From: a virus
Taxonomy: Duplodnaviria > Heunggongvirae > Uroviricota > Caudoviricetes
DNA: 64,000 bases
Reading direction: 5' to 3' (one strand)
IMG/VR virus record: IMGVR_UViG_2537561935_000012
Of this stretch, positions 4,847 through 19,465 are shown one piece after another (position 1 is the first letter of the stretch; every line of letters begins with the position of its first letter). The position numbers and the translations under genes were made by a program. Under the pieces are notes generated by a model. It did not search any database. It was given only the letters and a program-made list of their open reading frames with translations, and was not told the origin of the DNA.

Positions 4847-5227
4847 CTACTCCGCAGAACCATACAATCTACGTAACGTGTCGGCGACAGAAGATACAGA
4901 TATCTCGCCAGTCGCAGCGCCTACAGTAAGGTCTGCCAGTTCAGGTGAATCAAATACCTGCACCCCGTTACGGCGTAGAAATAGCAGCGCACTGTTTAGC
5001 GCGGTACGCTTATTGGCATCATTGAATATATGCCCTCTCGCTGTAGCCACCAGGTAGGTGGCGGAGACTTCGAAAAGGTCGGTGATCTCTTCGTAGGCAA
5101 CTCTGGCCTGAACTCTCCCGATAATGGCCTCTGCCCTACCCGGATCAGACATTCCCGGCAGGCCGCCGTAGCGGCTTATATTCGCATCATGAAGCGCAAT
5201 AAGTTCTTCCGGTGATATATGCCTCAT
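4847..5227 (-). CDS. doc: Doc toxin (Fic fold)
   Basis: 126 aa; Fic motif HIFNDANKR; start overlaps phd stop. Confidence 0.95.
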
Positions 5228-5448
5228 TATCGGTTAACCAGTTCCTTGTTGGTGGAGTCCAGGGTGTCAAACAGGGATGCAAATTCAGCATCCAGCGCCG
5301 CTTTTTTGTAGGCTTCGAAAGTAGCCTTGCTGACAATTACTGCTGGCTCACGGCCTCTGCGGGTGATTTCAACCTCTTCCCCGGCTTCAACATTGTTGAG
5401 CACTTCAGAAAGGTTGCCACGCGCGGTACGGAAGTTAATGGATTGCAT
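5227..5448 (-). CDS. phd: Phd antitoxin
   Basis: 73 aa from the second Met, [16 protein letters not shown]...; translationally coupled to doc. Confidence 0.95.
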
Positions 5449-5455
5449 AAACACC

Positions 5456-5480
5456 TCGTGTACTCGTTATGTGTACACAA
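5456..5480. promoter_or_regulatory. phd-doc operator palindromes
   Basis: cgtgtactcgttatgtgtacac (GTGTAC-type palindromes) just upstream of phd. Confidence 0.5.
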
Positions 5481-11327: not shown

Positions 11328-11500
11328 CGCTTTGCTCTCCTGCGTCTCTTTGCTGCTCGTCGTGCCGCTGCAATACCGGTATGGCGGCGCTTTGGTGCCG
11401 GGATGATGTTGTCAGCCATCAGGACATACGGCTTTGCAATTAGCGCAGAAGCCCAAAAACGAGTCGGGTACGGTAACAAGCCGATACATGCCACACGCAT
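11324..11500 (-). CDS. small basic protein, 58 aa
   Basis: AAGGAGG RBS; TAATG overlap with upstream stop; C-terminal RRAAKRRRRAKR. Confidence 0.3.
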   Translation of the reverse strand: MRVACIGLLPYPTRFWASALIAKPYVLMADNIIPAPKRRHTGIAAARRAAKRRRRAKR

Positions 11501-12120
11501 TACTCACCTCCTTTGATGCGAATGCCAGCGGCGCGTGGCACATTAACTTCCACGATGCGCACAGTTGGTTTGTACATCTCAATCGCAGTCAGCCAGTCAG
11601 CGCCAGTCATGCGCTTTTCTGCATCGCCATTAGTCCACTTAACCGGTACACCAATAGCCTTCATCGCGATTTCTATTTCCCCGGCAATGGCGCTTTTTCC
11701 GCAACCAGTAAAACCAGATACAACGACCAGAACTTCACCTTTGGCTGGTTTTATTCCCCGCGCTTCCAGTTCTGCTATGCGCTTACTTCCATCCGAGATA
11801 ACACCTTCGTAATACTCACGCTGCTCGTTGAGTTTTGATTTTGCCAACTCCAGTTGTTTTGTTAGTTCCGCAATACGGCAAACATCGTTGATACGCGTTT
11901 CCTCTAATGCGTTGATCTCATCCAGTAGTGCCAGCACGGTTTCTGGTCCGGCCAGAAATTTGAAGGCGTTGAGGGCATCAATATCAACACCGCTATCTTT
12001 AAGTTCCTGTTCGCTTATCAGAGCATCATCAACTGGCAACATTAACAGGCGTTCCATTGCCGGAATTGCACGCTCTGCCGCCTCACGCAGTGCCTGATAG
12101 TCAATTGTCATTCTCGCCAT
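11500..12120 (-). CDS. hypothetical protein
   Basis: 206 aa; coiled-coil N-terminus. Confidence 0.5.
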   Translation of the reverse strand: MARMTIDYQALREAAERAIPAMERLLMLPVDDALISEQELKDSGVDIDALNAFKFLAGPETVLALLDEINALEETRINDVCRIAELTKQLELAKSKLNEQREYYEGVISDGSKRIAELEARGIKPAKGEVLVVVSGFTGCGKSAIAGEIEIAMKAIGVPVKWTNGDAEKRMTGADWLTAIEMYKPTVRIVEVNVPRAAGIRIKGGE

Positions 12121-12752
12121 CCTTCACAGTTGTAATCACTACAGCCTTCAAAATCATATGGGCTGTACTGCCAGGTTATTTTTCCGCAATGCGGACAATT
12201 CCAACGCACCTTCCCGCTTCGCGACTTCTTTCTTCTGTTCTGCTCTTTCAACCAGTCAGGCATGACCAAACCTGCGCCCTGAACCATTGTTCTGCGGTTA
12301 AAGTTATTGATATTGAACGTCCGACGCTTTGCTGCATCAGCAATGGAAAATGGCAACCAAACTATTCCTGGTTCGTTTTTGTTGGCGACGCTAAAGATGG
12401 TCGCTTTACTGAAGTCATCTGTTGGCAATCCACCGTGTTGAAGCCAGTAAACATCGTTGCCGTTCCAGCTACCTTTTTTGTAGGCCACATACGCAGTGCA
12501 ATCTGACTCAATCAGGCTTTCTGTGGGGATGTACTGGCAATCAACGTGCCACACAGCCATTGCATCCACGCTATCAGCGCAAACAGGCTGATCGATATCT
12601 CGTCCACAATTCCAGGCTTTTTGGGCTTCTTCCAGCGTGTAAACATGAGCGCGATCGATATCAGAACTGTAACCATTGCCGTTATGGCAATGGAATGAGG
12701 CGTTATTACCCACAGTTTCACGCAAGCACATCATGTAAAAGCGGTTATTCAC
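12108..12752 (-). CDS. hypothetical protein with C-terminal zinc ribbon
   Basis: 214 aa; CPHCG...C..YNCEGW. Confidence 0.5.
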   Translation of the reverse strand: MNNRFYMMCLRETVGNNASFHCHNGNGYSSDIDRAHVYTLEEAQKAWNCGRDIDQPVCADSVDAMAVWHVDCQYIPTESLIESDCTAYVAYKKGSWNGNDVYWLQHGGLPTDDFSKATIFSVANKNEPGIVWLPFSIADAAKRRTFNINNFNRRTMVQGAGLVMPDWLKEQNRRKKSRSGKVRWNCPHCGKITWQYSPYDFEGCSDYNCEGWRE

Positions 12753-13029
12753 TGGTTGCCTCCGCTTCCCACGTTTTCAGACTTTCACCACAGAACGGGC
12801 AAAATGAAACTCGAATAGGCGATTTAGAAAATTCACCAGACCGCAGCATGATCAGGTCTTGTGAATGAATTAATTCATGGTTATAGATTTTGTATTTCAG
12901 CAGACCTTTTCGCGTCGTGTATTCAGCGTCATGCTCCAGGGATTGTGCCAACGCCGCGCACGGTTCTATCTTGTTGCCATTAATTTGGCATTTTGACTCA
13001 CTCACTGGTTGCCCCCTGAATACGCTCAA
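12745..13029 (-). CDS. hypothetical zinc-ribbon protein
   Basis: 94 aa; CPFCG motif. Confidence 0.4.
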   Translation of the reverse strand: MSVFRGQPVSESKCQINGNKIEPCAALAQSLEHDAEYTTRKGLLKYKIYNHELIHSQDLIMLRSGEFSKSPIRVSFCPFCGESLKTWEAEATSE

Positions 13030-13579
13030 ACTCTATTACCCACACCCAAGGATTAGCGTTCCAACTATCTTCGCCATAAATTGATTTCCATAGGCTACGG
13101 AAACCTGGGTAATGCTTATCGCCAATGAGGGTCGATTCTGTTGGTGCGCCCTCAGCCCTTGCATCGCATTCGCTGATATCGTTCAACCGCTCAACGCGCA
13201 CGTTGGTAATTTCCAGAAGAATGCGCGATGCCCAGCGCGGCATGTGAATTGATGGCGTCCACTTTTCTGATACTGGTTTATTACAAACCTCGACCGGAAC
13301 CCGGTGCGTTTGTTCTGTCCAGGAGTTACGCACGCTTGCGCGATAAACCAGCGTTGCGACGTCCGTCGCTTTGCCATGTACCCGGTAGGTTTCGCGAACC
13401 CAAATACGATCGCCCGGTTGACCATATGGACAATGCTTGGCAAGCAACTCTGCGGCCACTGCCCGTCCATAGAATTTTTCTTCAACAATCCTGCGAGTCT
13501 GTGTTTTATTCCCGCCAAGAATTGCCCGGACCATCTCATCGTTAAAAATCATGCCGCGCTCTTTCACTTCGCCTTTCAT
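12998..13579 (-). CDS. ASCH/PUA-like phage protein
   Basis: 193 aa; N-terminal MIFNDEMVRAILGGNKTQTRR...GDRIWVRE. Confidence 0.5.
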   Translation of the reverse strand: MKGEVKERGMIFNDEMVRAILGGNKTQTRRIVEEKFYGRAVAAELLAKHCPYGQPGDRIWVRETYRVHGKATDVATLVYRASVRNSWTEQTHRVPVEVCNKPVSEKWTPSIHMPRWASRILLEITNVRVERLNDISECDARAEGAPTESTLIGDKHYPGFRSLWKSIYGEDSWNANPWVWVIEFERIQGATSE

Positions 13580-13757: not shown

Positions 13758-13774
13758 ATATTTATTAGAGCAAT
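13758..13774. promoter_or_regulatory. C1 operator-like site (16/17)
   Basis: atatttattagagcaat in an intergenic region. Confidence 0.6.
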
Positions 13775-14280
13775 TATTGTTGATGGAGAAGCGCGTTTTC
13801 ATACTCCCTGACCATTAACGTAAGCACGCCGTGCCTCCTGAAAACACGCGCCACTTCAATCTTATCTTCCAGCGCGAACGCGATTTTACTTAGACCAATT
13901 TTCTTAAGGAGATCAATCTTTGCTGGGCCGTCATTTCTGTCATCGGTGGCAGGACGCATAGATAGCAAAGGCTCAGCCCCGTTTGTTACGTACTTCCGCA
14001 GCCAGGCTCGTGTTTTATCCCTTGCGATCTCACAGCGCCCGGTTACAAACCAGACCGTGTAAACGTTAAATAACTGGCGCACAATATCAATAACTGGAGT
14101 TATGGGAGTATCAGTGTCACAGGCGAGATTAAACTCGTTCCAGTCCTTTGTTAATGCACCTTTACCTGGTGGCGGAAGCAAATGCAGTCTGTCTTCAGTT
14201 GCCTCTGATATTGTTCCATCAATATCAACTATGACGATATACGGACGTTCCTGGTGTGCGTGTTTATTGAAAATACTCAA
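13774..14280 (-). CDS. HAD-superfamily phosphatase-like protein
   Basis: 168 aa; VIVDIDGT (DxDGT) motif. Confidence 0.5.
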   Translation of the reverse strand: MSIFNKHAHQERPYIVIVDIDGTISEATEDRLHLLPPPGKGALTKDWNEFNLACDTDTPITPVIDIVRQLFNVYTVWFVTGRCEIARDKTRAWLRKYVTNGAEPLLSMRPATDDRNDGPAKIDLLKKIGLSKIAFALEDKIEVARVFRRHGVLTLMVREYENALLHQQ

Positions 14281-14352
14281 ATTCCCTCCTCATTGGACGA
14301 AAAAAATGCTGGTGGGCGCACTCCACCAGCATTAAAAGTGACACTGTAACTG

Positions 14353-15615
14353 TCAGCGAACGTAAATAGTTCCGCCGTTCTCTTTTTCCCATGCATCGCT
14401 ACGTGCATAGCAAACATCGAGAAGTCTTCTTGCCGCTGTTTCCTCTAAACCCAATTCGACAACCAACTGCTCATGACGGCGGGTAACCACATCAAACAGG
14501 GTATGCAGCCCTTTAGCTGCCAGCTCATCAATAAATTCCGGTTCGAACGGCAGCTCTGCCTCTGCCAACATAACCTCTTGCGCCCACTCAACTCGACGGA
14601 CCAGTTCCGGGCGGCGGCTTTCCATCTCTTTACAGATCAATTCATGGAAGAACTCTACCCAACCTTCCGGCTGGAACTCGCGGAAAATGGCCAACGGCTG
14701 GAAGTTTGGCATCAACCATTCGTTGATCCGGATATCAATGGCATAGCCCATGTCGCAGCAGAACTGATAAGCAAAGTCCAGCTTAGAAACGATATAAGGA
14801 CGCTCGTTATTGAACTCTTTAGGCGATGAGATCCCATAAGCCAGGAGGCGCGGGAAGAAGGAGATTTGCCCTAACGTCGGATGAAGTTTGCTTGCAGGGA
14901 AACGGCGCTCAGTAATGCCATACATTTCCTTCTTGAGCGTCGCAAATTTGGCATTCTCATTAACCAGCGCGGTAACCTCTGCTTTTTTATTAGCAAATGC
15001 CACGCGCGCCTCGCTTGCATCTTTAATAGTTTTTTTGAGCTGTTGGTTAAGGTCGGCGACCTGCTTACGCAGTTCCTGTCGCTCGCTTTTAGCTTTGTTA
15101 TAGCGTTTCTCAAGGTTAAAAGGATCAAGTTTCATGATCTCTTTATATTGAGATTTTAGCGTTGAAATCTGTGAGTTCCGCAGTTCAACCATCGCGGTCA
15201 TTTCATTGAGTTTTGTTTCCAGCTCAATGCTTATACGTTCGGCATTATCAGCACGCTGGTTGGCGTCATGCGTCGCATCGTCGATCGCGTCCTGTTGCTG
15301 GCGTTTCAAATGTTCAATTTCCAGCTGAAGCTCTTCAATTTCTTTACCCTTCAGACCGAGATCCAACTGCATATTTTCAGCTGCATCTACCAGGGAGTTA
15401 TGGCTATCAGCTTCTGCGTTATAAACATCAATAAGCTGTGCGTGAAGCATCTCCGCTGACTGAACCGCATTATCAAAAAAACGCGCTGTGAGGTCATCAC
15501 AACTAACGCGGCGTTGCGCGGCCCGGATGTTCTGGATAATGGCCGGGATACCGGCATTCAGGACGTCAGGGATAGATACATTTTCGATTGATTGGTTTTG
15601 TGCTGAAGTGCTCAT
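14353..15615 (-). CDS. hypothetical protein, coiled-coil N-terminal half
   Basis: 420 aa; Cys/aromatic-rich C-terminal domain. Confidence 0.55.
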   Translation of the reverse strand: MSTSAQNQSIENVSIPDVLNAGIPAIIQNIRAAQRRVSCDDLTARFFDNAVQSAEMLHAQLIDVYNAEADSHNSLVDAAENMQLDLGLKGKEIEELQLEIEHLKRQQQDAIDDATHDANQRADNAERISIELETKLNEMTAMVELRNSQISTLKSQYKEIMKLDPFNLEKRYNKAKSERQELRKQVADLNQQLKKTIKDASEARVAFANKKAEVTALVNENAKFATLKKEMYGITERRFPASKLHPTLGQISFFPRLLAYGISSPKEFNNERPYIVSKLDFAYQFCCDMGYAIDIRINEWLMPNFQPLAIFREFQPEGWVEFFHELICKEMESRRPELVRRVEWAQEVMLAEAELPFEPEFIDELAAKGLHTLFDVVTRRHEQLVVELGLEETAARRLLDVCYARSDAWEKENGGTIYVR

Positions 15616-15616
15616 T

Positions 15617-15835
15617 TCAAAGTTCCGTATTAGCTTGTGCTTCGGTCATTTTTCCTAAGTATGAAGGAGGAAGGACTACGCAATTTGTATCCAGTCCCTC
15701 ACCTATGGCAGCCTGTAAAATTCTGGCTAAGGTGAGTCTCTTGTTGCGATACCTGGTGATGACATGCCTGATACCGCCGGTCGGCGTAACAAAGGCGATC
15801 AGCCAGTAGTGATATTTCCGTCGGAATGGCCACAT
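15617..15835 (-). CDS. hypothetical protein
   Basis: 72-aa ORF abutting the downstream gene. Confidence 0.3.
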   Translation of the reverse strand: MWPFRRKYHYWLIAFVTPTGGIRHVITRYRNKRLTLARILQAAIGEGLDTNCVVLPPSYLGKMTEAQANTEL

Positions 15836-15849
15836 AGTGCACCTTGTAG

Positions 15850-15915
15850 ATTGCTCTAATAAAAAACGTGATGAGTGTACATCACGTTTTAAAAATATGG
15901 AATTATTAGAGCAAT
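15850..15915. promoter_or_regulatory. pair of inverted C1 operator-like sites flanking a hairpin
   Basis: attgctctaataaaaaa (15850-15866) and ggaattattagagcaat (15899-15915) around aacgtgatg...catcacgtt. Confidence 0.5.
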
Positions 15916-15916
15916 A

Positions 15917-16618
15917 TTATTCTGATTCTCGCTCAAAAAATGAGCTGATAAGGGGAAGCCAATCCTCTGACACTTCGCGAGGTCGCGGTTTGCCGTGGAA
16001 AAAGATTATTCGGCAGTCTTTTGGTAATGCCCCATTCCCCCTGGAGTAACGCGCGCTCGCATATTTTGAACCAGGTTCCACAACATCGGCCTTGTAACTT
16101 ACAAACCATCCTGGATACAGATCCTGAAATGCTGGTGTATCATCGCCCATAACCTTTCGTAAGAACCCCTGGTCACCCCAGCACTCAGTAGTGACACAAC
16201 GAGAAATCCAACCTTCCGGATCTTGCCAGAATGAACTCCAGATATGCGCTTTAACACTATTTGGTATCCACAGGGCACCGCTGCCACGATATTGTGGATG
16301 GTAAAAATCCCTAAGCATGGTGAAGCTGGTTGGTGGATGCTCTAGGATTGGGCGTATATCACCGGCAATAACCGTGTCCAAATCCAGATAGAACAGATCA
16401 TCGGTTATATCCGGTCGGAACAACTCGATTTTCGCCCACCAGCCACGGCACTTTTGCCACTGGTTGATCAATGGGACAACTTTGACGCCAGGTACATGTA
16501 AACGCTTCAGGTCTGTCAGGCAAATAATTTCATAGCCTTTTGGCAGTTGATTAACCAGCCACTGCACATCGGAAGCGTTATAGTCACCACCAGAGCGAAA
16601 AACTAAAGCAATCTTCAT
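15917..16618 (-). CDS. hypothetical protein, possible GT-A-like glycosyltransferase
   Basis: 233 aa; YLDLD (DxD-like) motif; weak. Confidence 0.35.
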
Positions 16619-17307
16619 GCTGCACCATCACCTTTCACTTTCATCAATGTCAGGTTTCCGCAAAATACGGCACCAGTGTCGATATACTGCTGATTCCAGA
16701 ATGTCTTCGGGCTTTTCACCGGAGTGTGACCAAAGATAAAACGATCTGCGCCCGAAATTTCGCCACCAATATCATCCATCGAATCACTGATACGCTCGCG
16801 CGCCCAGACAACGTTGAAAAGCGGCACCTCCTTACCGAATTGGTATTCATTATCCGGATAGTCGGCATGGGCTATAACGATAGTTTCTTGCCCCGTGTTC
16901 AACTCAATGATATAGGGCAGACGCTTTACCAGCTCCACCAGCGCCCAGGCTAATATTTCCTGATCAGTGTCCAGCATGAAGAACCATTGTCCGCCATTCA
17001 TTAGCCAGTTATTCACGTTGCCATCTGGACTTAACGCATCAATCATCAGCCGCTCATGGTTCCCCATCACTGCCCTGAACCAGGGCATCTGCAATAGTTC
17101 CAGACATTCGACATTTTCAGTACCGCGATCGATAAGGTCGCCGACCGATATCAGTAAATCCTGCGCCGGGTCAAAATCCACACGATGGAGTTCGGACATC
17201 AGTCTGGTGTAGCAACCATGCAGATCACCAACAACCCAGACATTCCTGTATTTGGTACCGTCGATACGGTGATAAATTGTGGGTGCCATCATGTATTCTT
17301 CAGCCAT
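16615..17307 (-). CDS. ppp: Ser/Thr protein phosphatase (lambda-PPase family)
   Basis: 230 aa; GDLHG, GDLIDRG and GNHE motifs. Confidence 0.85.
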
Positions 17308-17915
17308 TCTTTAAGAGTCATCTGCGGAATACCTCCCATTTTCCCGCATGAAACAACGTCAATCTGTTCACGCGCAGACTGGAATAACAAAGGCAGGTGA
17401 CTTAGATTTTTTGGCGTGCTGCCGGAGTGAACGCGTAGTTCTTGCGTAGCGTCAACGCCCACCAGAGCTACATGTTTGAATCCGATATGGAAAGCCAGGG
17501 TCAGAGCACCATATGCACTATTGCCGCTGGCAATTTCATTCTCATCTTCGCAAAGGCCGAAATGTGCGGACCAGCGCCACGCCCACCACTCGGGAGAATT
17601 CGTATTTTTTGGCTCCATGCCGCGTTCAGCCACACGACGGAAGCACAGAACGCCATCTCTGACTTCACGTTCTTTAACATCGGGTAGTGCCATGCAATAA
17701 CAAACACCACGGCGACGGCGGCCACGACCAACGCGCCGCATATTGTCTGGCGATGGATCAAGTGTGAAAAAATAAGAAGCGCGGTTCAGCCAGTCGATGG
17801 CCCCATTGACCGCTATAATCGGCACTCCGCGCGGCGCAACAAAGTTTGCGGCGCTTGGGCCACTGCCGACGATAATAACGCGATCACTGCCTCTAAATTT
17901 ATTCTTGGGAAACAT
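17289..17915 (-). CDS. hypothetical Rossmann-like protein (GSGPS motif)
   Basis: 208 aa; VIIVGSGPS...IIAVN; paralog of the next ORF. Confidence 0.5.
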
Positions 17916-18442
17916 TGAATTGCACTGCTCCTACTTGCATTCAAAATATGTAAATCTGCGTGTTTTTTGCGGGTATCCAGGAACTGCTGTTGCCATTTTG
18001 AAATAGACACCTGCGTTGGATTCCGTAGTGCTTGAGGGTGCGCGCCATGCCAATGAAGGCCGTTTTGCAGAGAACAGTCATAGCCGACTAATACCACTAC
18101 TTCAGCCCCTGATTCAGCAGCCAGACTGATAGCCTGCGCGCCGCTATTTACCCCTTCCGCCGGTCCACAATATCTCCTGTACTCCAACGAAAATGATTTC
18201 GCCGCCGCCAGGTTGGCTGTCACTTTGCGGAATCTCCCTCCCGGTATGGTGGATCCGTATTGCTTCCACCATGACAAATCACCGGCGTATAAGGCATAAA
18301 TGTCATCGAACATCTGCCAGGAATTGTTAACCGCGATGATTGAACAGCCAGTTTTTTCTATAGCAGCACAGTCCTCACGAGTGAGTGACGGTCCGCTACC
18401 GACACAAAAAACAGTCCTAGTCGCCCTGGGTGGTATGTTCAT
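17813..18442 (-). CDS. hypothetical Rossmann-like protein, paralog of previous
   Basis: VFCVGSGPSL...IIAVNNSW; start set at internal Met by alignment with paralog; about 100-nt overlap. Confidence 0.45.
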   Translation of the reverse strand: MNIPPRATRTVFCVGSGPSLTREDCAAIEKTGCSIIAVNNSWQMFDDIYALYAGDLSWWKQYGSTIPGGRFRKVTANLAAAKSFSLEYRRYCGPAEGVNSGAQAISLAAESGAEVVVLVGYDCSLQNGLHWHGAHPQALRNPTQVSISKWQQQFLDTRKKHADLHILNASRSSAIQCFPRINLEAVIALLSSAVAQAPQTLLRRAECRL

Positions 18443-18638
18443 TCTCAGCTGCAAATTCAGCCTCCAGGCGAGCATTCATTTCAGCGATTACAGAGTCCAC
18501 TACAGCATCTGTTTCCTGTTCATTACGCGGCATGATCGATGCCAGCGATTCATAATTAGCCTTGGATGACACGACTATTCTCCCGATGTTAATGTGCGCT
18601 ATATCAAATGGCGCATATGTACTAATTAATTTATTATT

Positions 18639-19217
18639 TTAAGCAGCATACAACCACTTGTCGCCGTTCAATACATGCTCAATAGCCTCACCCTTTTTAA
18701 GGCTTATGTATTCCAGGATGGCGGTTATCGCTTGTTCTGCACCATACGCAAGAACGACGTAGTAACCTTCCTCTCTAAGCCTGCGCATCCAGGCGATCTG
18801 CTCTTTCGTCGGGGCTTTACCATTTGGTTCTTTAAGCTCAATTCGCATGCCGTGATAAATACCGCATGCTTTATCGAGACTCATGTCCGGATAACCTTTT
18901 TTCTGCCCTTCAGCTTTCATTTTCCCGGCGGTTGCTTTTGAACGTTTCCCTCCGTTAGGCGTTGCATGCAACAGCTCATAGATGTCAGGGTGCTTGCGTT
19001 CGAAGTAATCAAAAATGAAAACCTGCTCGAAGTGCTCGCAATTTCCGTCGCGCAGGTCTGGGTTCTTTGCCAGTGCTGCAAGTGCCTTCGCATGTGGAGA
19101 AACTTCTTTTACCGGCGCAAGCGATAAGAATGGATCCTTTTTGGTTTTTGGCCTGGACCGCCCCTTATTTCTACGCTCACTAAAAGCCTGAAACTCTTCC
19201 TCAGTAAAGCGCAACAT
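18639..19217 (-). CDS. VRR-NUC domain nuclease
   Basis: 192 aa; GYPDM...IELKEPNGK motif. Confidence 0.6.
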   Translation of the reverse strand: MLRFTEEEFQAFSERRNKGRSRPKTKKDPFLSLAPVKEVSPHAKALAALAKNPDLRDGNCEHFEQVFIFDYFERKHPDIYELLHATPNGGKRSKATAGKMKAEGQKKGYPDMSLDKACGIYHGMRIELKEPNGKAPTKEQIAWMRRLREEGYYVVLAYGAEQAITAILEYISLKKGEAIEHVLNGDKWLYAA

Positions 19218-19219
19218 AA

Positions 19220-19465
19220 TCAGTCAAATCCTGCCGGTCGCATGCCATATTTACGCTGTTTTGCGGCCTGCTCTTCCCTGTGCCATTGCGCACACTCAGC
19301 GTCACAATAGATGCCTGATTCGATCGGTTCATTGCAGTAACGACACTTCCCTGTAAATACCTGGCTCACGACCTGTGCCTGCTTTCTGATGTTATCGATG
19401 GCCATGTCTTTGAGAGCTTCTAACTGATTCATGCTCAGCTCTGCATCATCAACACGTTCTGCCAA
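19220..19465 (-). CDS. TraR/DksA-type C4 zinc-finger protein
   Basis: 81 aa; CRYCNEPIE...YCDAEC. Confidence 0.6.
   Translation of the reverse strand: MAERVDDAELSMNQLEALKDMAIDNIRKQAQVVSQVFTGKCRYCNEPIESGIYCDAECAQWHREEQAAKQRKYGMRPAGFD

Follow-up and report, generated by a model that had tools for sequence, protein, structure and literature searches.

Introduction

The closest described counterpart of the genes considered here comes from mycobacteriophages, for which Freeman et al. in 2023 are said to have shown that glycosyltransferases of Che8, Rita and relatives glycosylate capsid and tail-tube subunits. The glycosyltransferases are reported to be encoded by the phages and to be joined in some relatives by methyltransferases. 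At the level of single proteins, the nearest known enzymes are members of glycosyltransferase family 8 (GT8), several of which extend glycans on cytoplasmic proteins, and Maf, a cytoplasmic enzyme whose substrate is a surface protein that assembles by itself. Here we analyse a 64,000-nucleotide stretch of phage DNA (IMG/VR record IMGVR_UViG_2537561935_000012; hereafter the window), and in it three minus-strand genes, pmgO, pmgP and pmgQ. We propose that they encode a mobile module of glycosyltransferases that would decorate a surface-exposed virion protein, probably the capsid, using nucleotide sugars of the host. This function is drawn by analogy, and we give it slightly less than an even chance of being right.

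Annotation of the genes in this region dates back to the P1 genome paper, and they still bear placeholder names ('putative morphogenetic function'). Automated annotation already names PmgQ 'glycosyltransferase' and PmgO 'alpha-2,3-sialyltransferase'. Our literature searches returned no prior account of the function of the module, of its modular conservation or of an association with capsid genes, nor any report that places DUF115 genes next to capsid genes or describes a glycosylated capsid in phages of Gram-negative bacteria.

Results

The region belongs to a P1/P7-type phage-plasmid

The window is a phage-plasmid of the P1/P7 type. Across positions 13774-18475 it shares 99.3% identity with Salmonella phage SJ46, 99.0% with P7 and 98.7% with P1, and the region corresponds to the genes annotated as pmgN-pap in P1 and hdmA-pap in P7. 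The three genes of main interest are listed here, with amino acids abbreviated aa.

pmgO/hdmB: 17813-18475, minus strand; 220 aa; putative glycosyltransferase, Maf/GT42-sialyltransferase-like (DUF115/MptE fold)
pmgP/hdmC: 17289-17915, minus strand; 208 aa; remote paralog of PmgO
pmgQ/hdmD: 15917-16618, minus strand; 233 aa, with the motif FYLDLDT; putative retaining glycosyltransferase of GT8 type (GT-A fold, DxD)

PmgQ resembles GT8 glycosyltransferases

The AlphaFold model of PmgQ (predicted local distance difference test, pLDDT, 94.6) was compared with the PDB using Foldseek. The top 50 matches were all GT8 or closely related GT-A enzymes (E=2e-8 to 2e-6, template modelling (TM) score 0.5-0.6, identity 10-17%), and the relatives found include Gat1/AgtA, glycogenin, LgtC, GlyE and the catalytic domain of UGGT. 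Searches by sequence point the same way. Against PDB sequences, the profile of the PmgQ family matches Gat1 (6MW5), a cytoplasmic protein-glycan transferase, at E=2.4e-6 and GlyE at E=0.0039. In the alignment to Gat1 the DxD, GDQ and PxP motifs of the family are in register; the P-x-P of PmgQ falls on PKPW of Gat1, in the region of the GT8 motif type HxxGxxKPW with its metal-binding histidine, and the histidines are offset by two positions in this hidden Markov model (HMM) alignment.

Four blocks are invariant in an alignment of 31 PmgQ sequences: D79-L-D81-T, G148-D-Q, S174-Y-K and F-H208-G-x-P-R-P. D79-L-D81, which has the form of the DxD motif that binds metal and nucleotide sugar, is also invariant in 25 diverse homologs, and aligns to DAD in Gat1 and DSD in GlyE. 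Based on the model and these motifs, PmgQ is a putative retaining glycosyltransferase of GT8 type, DxD-containing and metal-dependent. With the GT8 enzymes glycogenin, Gat1/AgtA, LgtC and GlyE it shares a predicted GT-A fold, a DxD motif, a GDQ-type motif and a C-terminal PxP-type motif. It differs from them in the low TM-scores and identities given above and in its lack of a Pfam GT8 match: scans of Pfam and NCBIfam returned nothing for PmgQ, including with the curated GT8 model (Glyco_transf_8). PmgQ is also shorter than LgtC and the Waa enzymes of lipopolysaccharide (LPS) synthesis. Some of its homologs are far longer (322-425 aa; loci L076, 6989-8254; L078, 1962-3239; L068, 6701-7669), which suggests fusion to an extra domain.

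PmgO and PmgP are remote paralogs with a predicted Maf/CstII-like fold

BLASTP finds one 36-residue N-terminal match between PmgO and PmgP (E=0.004). When their family profiles are compared using hhalign, the two align over 163 columns with 97.8% probability (E=6.7e-13), and by this measure they are remote paralogs. The predicted structure of PmgO has the fold of Maf and of CstII sialyltransferase-like (GT42/MptE) enzymes. PmgP, whose family profile matched nothing meaningful among PDB sequences, is assigned the same Maf/GT42/MptE fold through its profile homology to PmgO. Many homologs of the two proteins have a precomputed match to the Pfam family PF01973 (MptE-like).

Homologs of PmgO share three invariant blocks, G28-P-S-L, S111-G112 and G131-Y-D133, along with H141 and H143, which are candidate catalytic-type histidines judging from their conservation. 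In CstII, the residues that serve as catalytic base or bind phosphate are His188, Tyr156 and Tyr162. The PmgO profile matches CstII weakly (E=0.2-0.7 for the whole sequence), and the alignment places GSGPSL on GNGPSL and NSG...GYDC on TSG...GIDF. The nucleotide-binding GxGPS loop near the N-terminus of PmgO and its SG...GxD motifs align with those of Maf (5MU5) and CstII/Cst-I. Unlike Maf, PmgO and PmgP each consist of one minimal domain of about 200 residues and lack flanking domains, and they differ from Maf/GT42 enzymes in an identity of 13-16% and a Pfam score under the cut-off. Relative to PmgO, PmgP carries an inserted segment with a conserved SPEWWxWRWS; more than 300 PmgP homologs were found.

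Residues 1-16 of the PmgO model are of low confidence and the tail past about residue 200 is of lower confidence; both parts are unconserved. Since its homologs are about 180-200 aa long, the true start may be Met12 (18442). For pmgP the long start is forced by the GSGPS motif; in a Citrobacter prophage the gene caller had cut the PmgP homolog short, with loss of this motif. One PmgO homolog of 376 aa (P0092) combines PF01973 with a second Pfam domain, PF27901.

pmgO, pmgP and pmgQ travel as a unit

A lambdoid prophage of Citrobacter rodentium carries contiguous homologs of pmgO, pmgP and pmgQ between its lysis genes and terminase. There is no ppp, pap, pmgR or pmgS in this prophage module, and the 213-aa gene that follows the three homologs has no counterpart in the window. 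In a Pseudomonas prophage, the three genes overlap one another and lie directly after the major capsid gene, followed by a head-tail adaptor; ppp is again absent. The P1-like Cronobacter phage JK004 (MZ188976.1) has the order N-O-P-Q-R-S-pap, lacks ppp, and has pmgP adjoining pmgQ. Its pmgO homolog (4887-5474, minus strand, 71% identity) is unannotated and lies in an annotation gap.

Among records of cultured phages, all 27 with PmgP also have PmgQ, and wherever coordinates were compared the two genes lie within about 1.3 kb of each other. Citrobacter phage phiNP is a cultured phage with the module behind its capsid gene, and E. coli phages EP_H11, Chlobot and Chuche are further cultured carriers. 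Phage D6 has only ppp in common with the region. PmgS was found in P1-like phages only, except for two weak matches in Pseudomonas phage records. From these distributions, we regard pmgO-pmgP-pmgQ as the unit that travels together.

Compared to JK004, the ratio of nonsynonymous to synonymous substitution rates (dN/dS) is about 0.07-0.10, with synonymous sites saturated; the value is 0.07 for pmgP. For pmgO the proportion of nonsynonymous differences (pN) is 0.20, and its synonymous counterpart (pS) is saturated. These values indicate that the trio is under purifying selection.

The original prediction treated the whole region as one pathway and suggested examining co-occurrence across P1-like genomes. 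That comparison gave a mixed answer: JK004 keeps N-O-P-Q-R-S-pap but lacks ppp, and D6 shares ppp only. The single pathway did not survive, as elsewhere only the trio travels together and the genes here fall into three transcription units. One operon or pathway for all eight genes was rejected, as the operators described below, co-occurrence, JK004 and D6 speak against it.

Many homologs of PmgQ lie beside capsid genes

PmgQ-family alignments were run on viral contigs (two scans) and on bacterial genomes (one scan), giving 129 non-redundant PmgQ loci outside P1, mostly from alpha-, beta- and gammaproteobacteria. In at least 59 of the 129, Q has an O- or P-like gene on its own strand at a distance of no more than 4 kb, most often directly upstream. 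The upstream gene was defined as the nearest with at least 250 residues, which was present in 85 loci, and each was scanned against Pfam. It encodes a major capsid protein in 34 of these 85 loci, drawn from four Pfam families (Phage_capsid, 23; Gp13-like, 8; Phage_capsid_2, 2; Phage_cap_E, 1). As a rough estimate, a random gene would come after a capsid gene a few per cent of the time. Other head genes in this upstream position encode portal (4), Mu F-like (2) and S49 prohead-protease (1) proteins.

We also classified 107 genes that intervene or lie immediately downstream. These include 14 gp6-like head-tail connectors and five head-completion proteins. The same set holds 12 FkbM-type and six Methyltransf_24 methyltransferases, GT2 and GT25 glycosyltransferases, sulfotransferases, adenylylsulfate (APS) kinase, GDP-mannose dehydratase/epimerase and an aminotransferase. 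Judging by gene content, the PmgQ family is a regular part of glycan-building islands that have capsid genes on one side and connector genes on the other.

Published P1 data on these genes

Single in-frame deletions of pmgN, pmgO, pmgP, pmgQ, pmgS, ppp and pap have been made in P1. All seven are viable and plate normally, as expected for accessory enzymes, and their restriction phenotype on EcoA, EcoB and EcoK hosts is normal. The list of P1 virion proteins in the cryo-electron microscopy (cryo-EM) paper includes none of the eight proteins of the region, and the P1 proteome paper does not name pmgO, pmgQ or ppp in its main text or in its tables. The published P1 data fit virion glycosylation and lend it no positive support.

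It should also be noted that two genes of the region behave differently between methods. pmgN is essential by CRISPR interference (CRISPRi; plating efficiency 1.4e-2) but its in-frame deletion is viable, and knock-down of the downstream genes is harmless. For pmgR the reverse holds, with an essential deletion and a non-essential CRISPRi result; the authors explain neither case (PMC10695390, PMC9024508).

Gene layout and C1 operators

Eight minus-strand genes at 13774-18572 are supported both by the open reading frame (ORF) list and by the annotations of P1 and P7. Besides the trio, the features of the region are:

pmgN/hdmA: 18417-18572, minus strand; 51 aa; first gene of the operon, reaching past the end of the originally predicted cluster
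ppp: 16615-17307, minus strand; 230 aa; lambda-type Ser/Thr (PPP-family) metallophosphatase
pmgR/shtA: 15617-15835, minus strand; 72 aa; an ORF absent from the original list
pmgS/shtB: 14353-15615, minus strand; 420 aa; central coiled coil, non-essential
pap: 13774-14280, minus strand; 168 aa, with the HAD motif VDIDGT; stand-alone PNKP-type (polynucleotide kinase-phosphatase) HAD phosphatase
C1 operator Op88: 13758-13774, minus strand; one mismatch; equals OpmgT in P1 and Op(hea) in P7
C1 operator pair Op86b (15850-15866, plus strand) and Op86a (15899-15915, minus strand), with the pmgR promoter; consensus matches
Degenerate C1 operator 5' of pmgN (P1 Oppp, formerly Op83): 18616-18632, plus strand; TATGTACTAATTAATTT, 12 of 17 positions
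Terminator-like hairpin between pmgS and pap: 14305-14333, minus strand; from a consensus scan only

The asymmetric 17-bp C1 operator consensus, ATTGCTCTAATAAATTT, has 10 matches in the window compared to 0.35 expected. Op88 covers the first base of the pap stop codon and controls the next operon downstream. Op86b and Op86a, which lie between pmgQ and pmgR, are annotated in P1 as OpmgRb and OpmgRa with the promoter PpmgR. At the position of the Op83 homolog, the P1 and P7 annotations also place an operator 5' of pmgN; the copy in the window has one mismatch more than P1 and P7 (TATGTAC... vs CATGCAC...), within the conserved GC core. From the operator positions, the genes form three transcription units rather than one operon. 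Their sequences place these units in the C1 regulon of P1, by which they would be silent in the prophage and on in lytic growth.

The hairpin is a strong one, with an 11-bp stem that has six G-C pairs and with a T run, and is flanked by the pmgS stop on one side and the pap start on the other. Its terminator-like form before pap means that pap may need read-through or may be partly uncoupled from pmgR-pmgS. Within the operon of the trio, pmgO overlaps pmgP by 103 nucleotides (17813-17915) and pmgN by 59 (18417-18475).

Two further genes lie 5' of pmgN and are labelled 'putative morphogenetic' in P1, pmgM (18639-19217) and pmgL (19220-19465). PmgM resembles nucleases of the VRR-NUC/Holliday-junction-resolvase type (Pfam E=3e-4, just under the cut-off; phrog_5702, E=5e-27), and PmgL resembles a DksA-like zinc-finger protein (phrog_54). 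On the other side, past Op88, positions 11500-13579 follow P7 and not P1: upf86.8, upf87.4, upf87.6 and an Ead/Ea22-like gene replace pmgT/U/V. Only the Ead/Ea22-like protein of this stretch has a confident family call, and its C-terminal part weakly matches P-loop/APS-kinase-like proteins. Nothing sugar-related was found in this operon downstream of Op88.

Neighbouring genes outside the trio

Ppp is, by sequence, a protein phosphatase of lambda type, and its conservation does not follow that of the trio. It matches the lambda phosphatase structure 1G5B at E=1.5e-94 over residues 11-229 and the Pfam family Metallophos at E=9e-16 (59.3 bits, cut-off 21.5), and its translation contains the metallophosphatase motifs GDLHG, GDLIDRG and GNHE. 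The alignment with lambda phosphatase NinI (1G5B) is end to end and every metallophosphatase motif is kept; the difference is in location, as ppp sits between pmgP and pmgQ in P1 and P7 while its lambda counterpart is in the nin region. The presence of ppp in P1 and P7 but not in their relative JK004 is read as an insertion into the operon. We considered and rejected a functional link between ppp and the glycosyltransferase genes, as no occurrence of the trio outside P1/P7 includes ppp.

Pap matches the Pfam family HAD_PNKP (PF25109) at 46.3 bits, above the cut-off of 27.6, and phrog_415 (polynucleotide kinase). The translation of its ORF contains the DxDxT nucleophile motif as D19-I-D21-G-T, and among solved structures the phosphatase domain of Pnkp1 (4XRP, E=5.5e-4) is its best relative in terms of function. 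These matches identify Pap as a PNKP-type HAD phosphatase. It shares the HAD DxDxT motif with the phosphatase domain of T4-type polynucleotide kinase-phosphatase (Pnkp1, 4XRP) but, unlike that enzyme, stands alone in a region without a kinase or ligase partner.

PmgR is a genuine morphogenesis gene product that acts in head-tail joining, and pmgR is the sole gene here with a demonstrated role: deletion in P1 leaves heads and tails unjoined, and complementation in trans works (Gonzales et al. 2022). Scans of Pfam and NCBIfam were empty for both PmgR and PmgN; PmgN matches phrog_2350 only. Searches of PmgS against Pfam, NCBIfam and PDB sequences gave coiled-coil noise only, and the dN/dS of pmgS is 0.07.

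Much of the original prediction for individual proteins holds. Its DxDGT HAD-fold protein is Pap, its 420-aa coiled-coil protein is PmgS (both the ORF and the central coiled coil are present), its YLDLD-motif protein is PmgQ with a GT8-type model, and its lambda-type phosphatase is Ppp. The two GSGPS proteins are PmgO and PmgP, whose paralogy is real yet remote. The structure search that it had suggested, performed here with Foldseek, gave enzymatic folds, with PmgQ matching GT8 enzymes and the PmgO model being Maf/GT42-like. The minus-strand cluster behind operator-like sites is likewise present, with real ORFs and operators, although it comprises eight genes in three units and not one operon. 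That the genes are enzyme-like rather than morphogenetic is accurate for the sugar-transferase-like PmgO, PmgP and PmgQ but not for PmgR.

Discussion

We propose that the products of pmgO, pmgP and pmgQ would act in the cytoplasm, where they would assemble a short glycan on a protein of the phage. The acceptor would most probably be a virion protein exposed at the surface, for example the major capsid protein. As there are no genes for sugar-nucleotide synthesis in the region, the donors must come from the host: PmgQ would take a host UDP-hexose, and PmgO and PmgP might use a CMP-activated ulosonic acid such as CMP-Kdo (Kdo, 3-deoxy-D-manno-oct-2-ulosonic acid). The glycosylation of flagellin by Maf in the cytoplasm offers the same logic for PmgO and PmgP, by analogy. 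Repression by C1 in the lysogen, together with the embedding of the genes in late head operons elsewhere, suggests that the substrate is made in lytic growth. A role in the lysogen is excluded by C1 repression, and lysogenic conversion, which we considered, is ruled out because the units are C1-repressed. We infer the transferase activity, donor and acceptor, and with them the use that P1 itself makes of the module and the glycosylation of its particles, from folds, motifs, module conservation and gene neighbourhoods that are directly observed.

Several points weigh against virion glycosylation. The adjacency to capsid genes is guilt by association, counted without a shuffled or random-gene control, and in P1 and P7 themselves the neighbours of the module are pmgM/pmgL and pmgR/pmgS and not a capsid gene. 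The P1 module is driven by C1-controlled sigma-70 promoters and not by an annotated late promoter. A full-text search of the 2026 P1 cryo-EM paper found no mention of glycan or unassigned density. The cultured phages that carry the module have Gram-negative hosts only, which fits an LPS acceptor equally well, and the combination of GT8, GT25 and GT42 is also the toolkit of the lipooligosaccharide outer core. For the PF01973 family, PmgO scores 23.4 bits and PmgP 20.8 bits, below the curated cut-off of 34.6. To our knowledge, sialic, pseudaminic and legionaminic acid are not made by E. coli K-12. As their CMP-activated forms are the usual donors of Maf/GT42 enzymes, the donor for PmgO and PmgP is uncertain. 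A bolder form of the proposal is that P1, together with a wide range of phages of Gram-negative hosts in which the module follows the capsid gene, glycosylates the capsid or another virion protein with a Maf-like enzyme that uses a host CMP-ulosonic acid; we know of no such donor in E. coli K-12 other than CMP-Kdo, and consider this form decidedly unlikely as a whole.

The serious rival is remodelling of LPS or lipooligosaccharide, in which the trio would alter a host envelope glycan (LPS core or a lipooligosaccharide-like extension) in lytic growth. P1 uses the terminal glucose of the LPS core as its receptor, and the change could hide it, sparing progeny from binding to debris or blocking superinfection. 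LgtC, a lipooligosaccharide galactosyltransferase, is among the structural relatives of PmgQ; PmgO resembles CstII/Cst-I, which sialylate lipooligosaccharide; and GT25 'LPS biosynthesis' genes lie beside homologs. That the receptor of P1 is the LPS core also counts in its favour, as do the Gram-negative hosts of all cultured carriers and the early-type, C1-controlled promoters of the P1 operon. However, elsewhere the genes are tightly packed or overlapping between capsid and head-tail connector genes, and this position in head operons implies late expression, when little new LPS reaches the surface. Lysogenic conversion is ruled out by C1 repression, and the deletions have no plaque defect. 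Taken together, we judge envelope remodelling rather unlikely.

A second rival takes its cue from the sole Pfam family match of PmgO and PmgP, 'MptE-like'. Here the two proteins would be no glycosyltransferases; they would resemble MptE or thiamin pyrophosphokinase and (pyro)phosphorylate a small molecule, and the cluster would serve to produce or break down a metabolite or signal, an idea to which the two phosphatases nearby (Ppp and Pap) lend some appeal. However, the motifs of PmgO align to CstII, the constant partner of the pair is a GT8-type transferase, the other neighbours are glycan-tailoring enzymes, and Ppp and Pap do not co-occur with PmgO/PmgP elsewhere. This makes a pyrophosphokinase-like role very doubtful.

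The original prediction had also entertained nucleic-acid modification, by which glycosylation or end-healing of phage DNA or RNA would evade restriction or other nucleic-acid-targeting defences. DNA-modifying phage glycosyltransferases are well known in the literature and Pap is of the polynucleotide kinase-phosphatase type, but the deletions of pmgN, pmgO, pmgP, pmgQ, pmgS, ppp and pap are restriction-normal on EcoA, EcoB and EcoK hosts, standard restriction enzymes routinely digest P1 DNA, family scans of the region found no hydroxymethylase, base-modifying enzyme, kinase or ligase partner, and homologs lie in head modules beside capsid and connector genes and not in replication modules; we regard this role as highly improbable. 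That the proteins are instead non-enzymatic structural or assembly factors of head or sheath, as the P1 'pmg' and P7 'hdm'/'sht' annotations have it and as the true need for pmgR in head-tail joining and the location of homologs in head modules might suggest, is hardly plausible given that PmgN, PmgO, PmgP, PmgQ, PmgS, Ppp and Pap are not among the cryo-EM virion proteins and are all dispensable for plaque formation, that catalytic-type motifs are invariant in distant homologs and that the folds are enzymatic.

P1 is among the phages most used in genetics. If the bolder form above is correct, virion glycosylation would be a common and overlooked trait outside actinobacteriophages, and Kdo would be placed on protein. 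If the trio glycosylates virion proteins, self-glycosylation would no longer be confined to mycobacteriophages but would also include phages that infect enterobacteria, pseudomonads, rhizobia and marine bacteria. It would matter for how antibodies recognise therapeutic phages and how these phages are cleared, and would supply glyco-engineering in E. coli with cytoplasmic protein glycosyltransferases of small size (about 200 residues). If LPS is the target instead, the module would be a receptor-masking system of the lytic cycle.

Compared to the mycobacteriophage system, from which glycans are reported on virions, the PmgO/P/Q module is known from genes alone. The hosts also differ, being actinobacteria for mycobacteriophages and Gram-negative bacteria for carriers of PmgO/P/Q. 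In P1 the trio is dispensable for plaques and lies away from the capsid gene under C1-controlled promoters. What is new here is phage virion glycosylation, as a putative function, with other enzyme families and in another host range. As in mycobacteriophages, where glycosyltransferases can be joined by methyltransferases, homologs of PmgO and PmgQ adjoin capsid genes with methyltransferases alongside.

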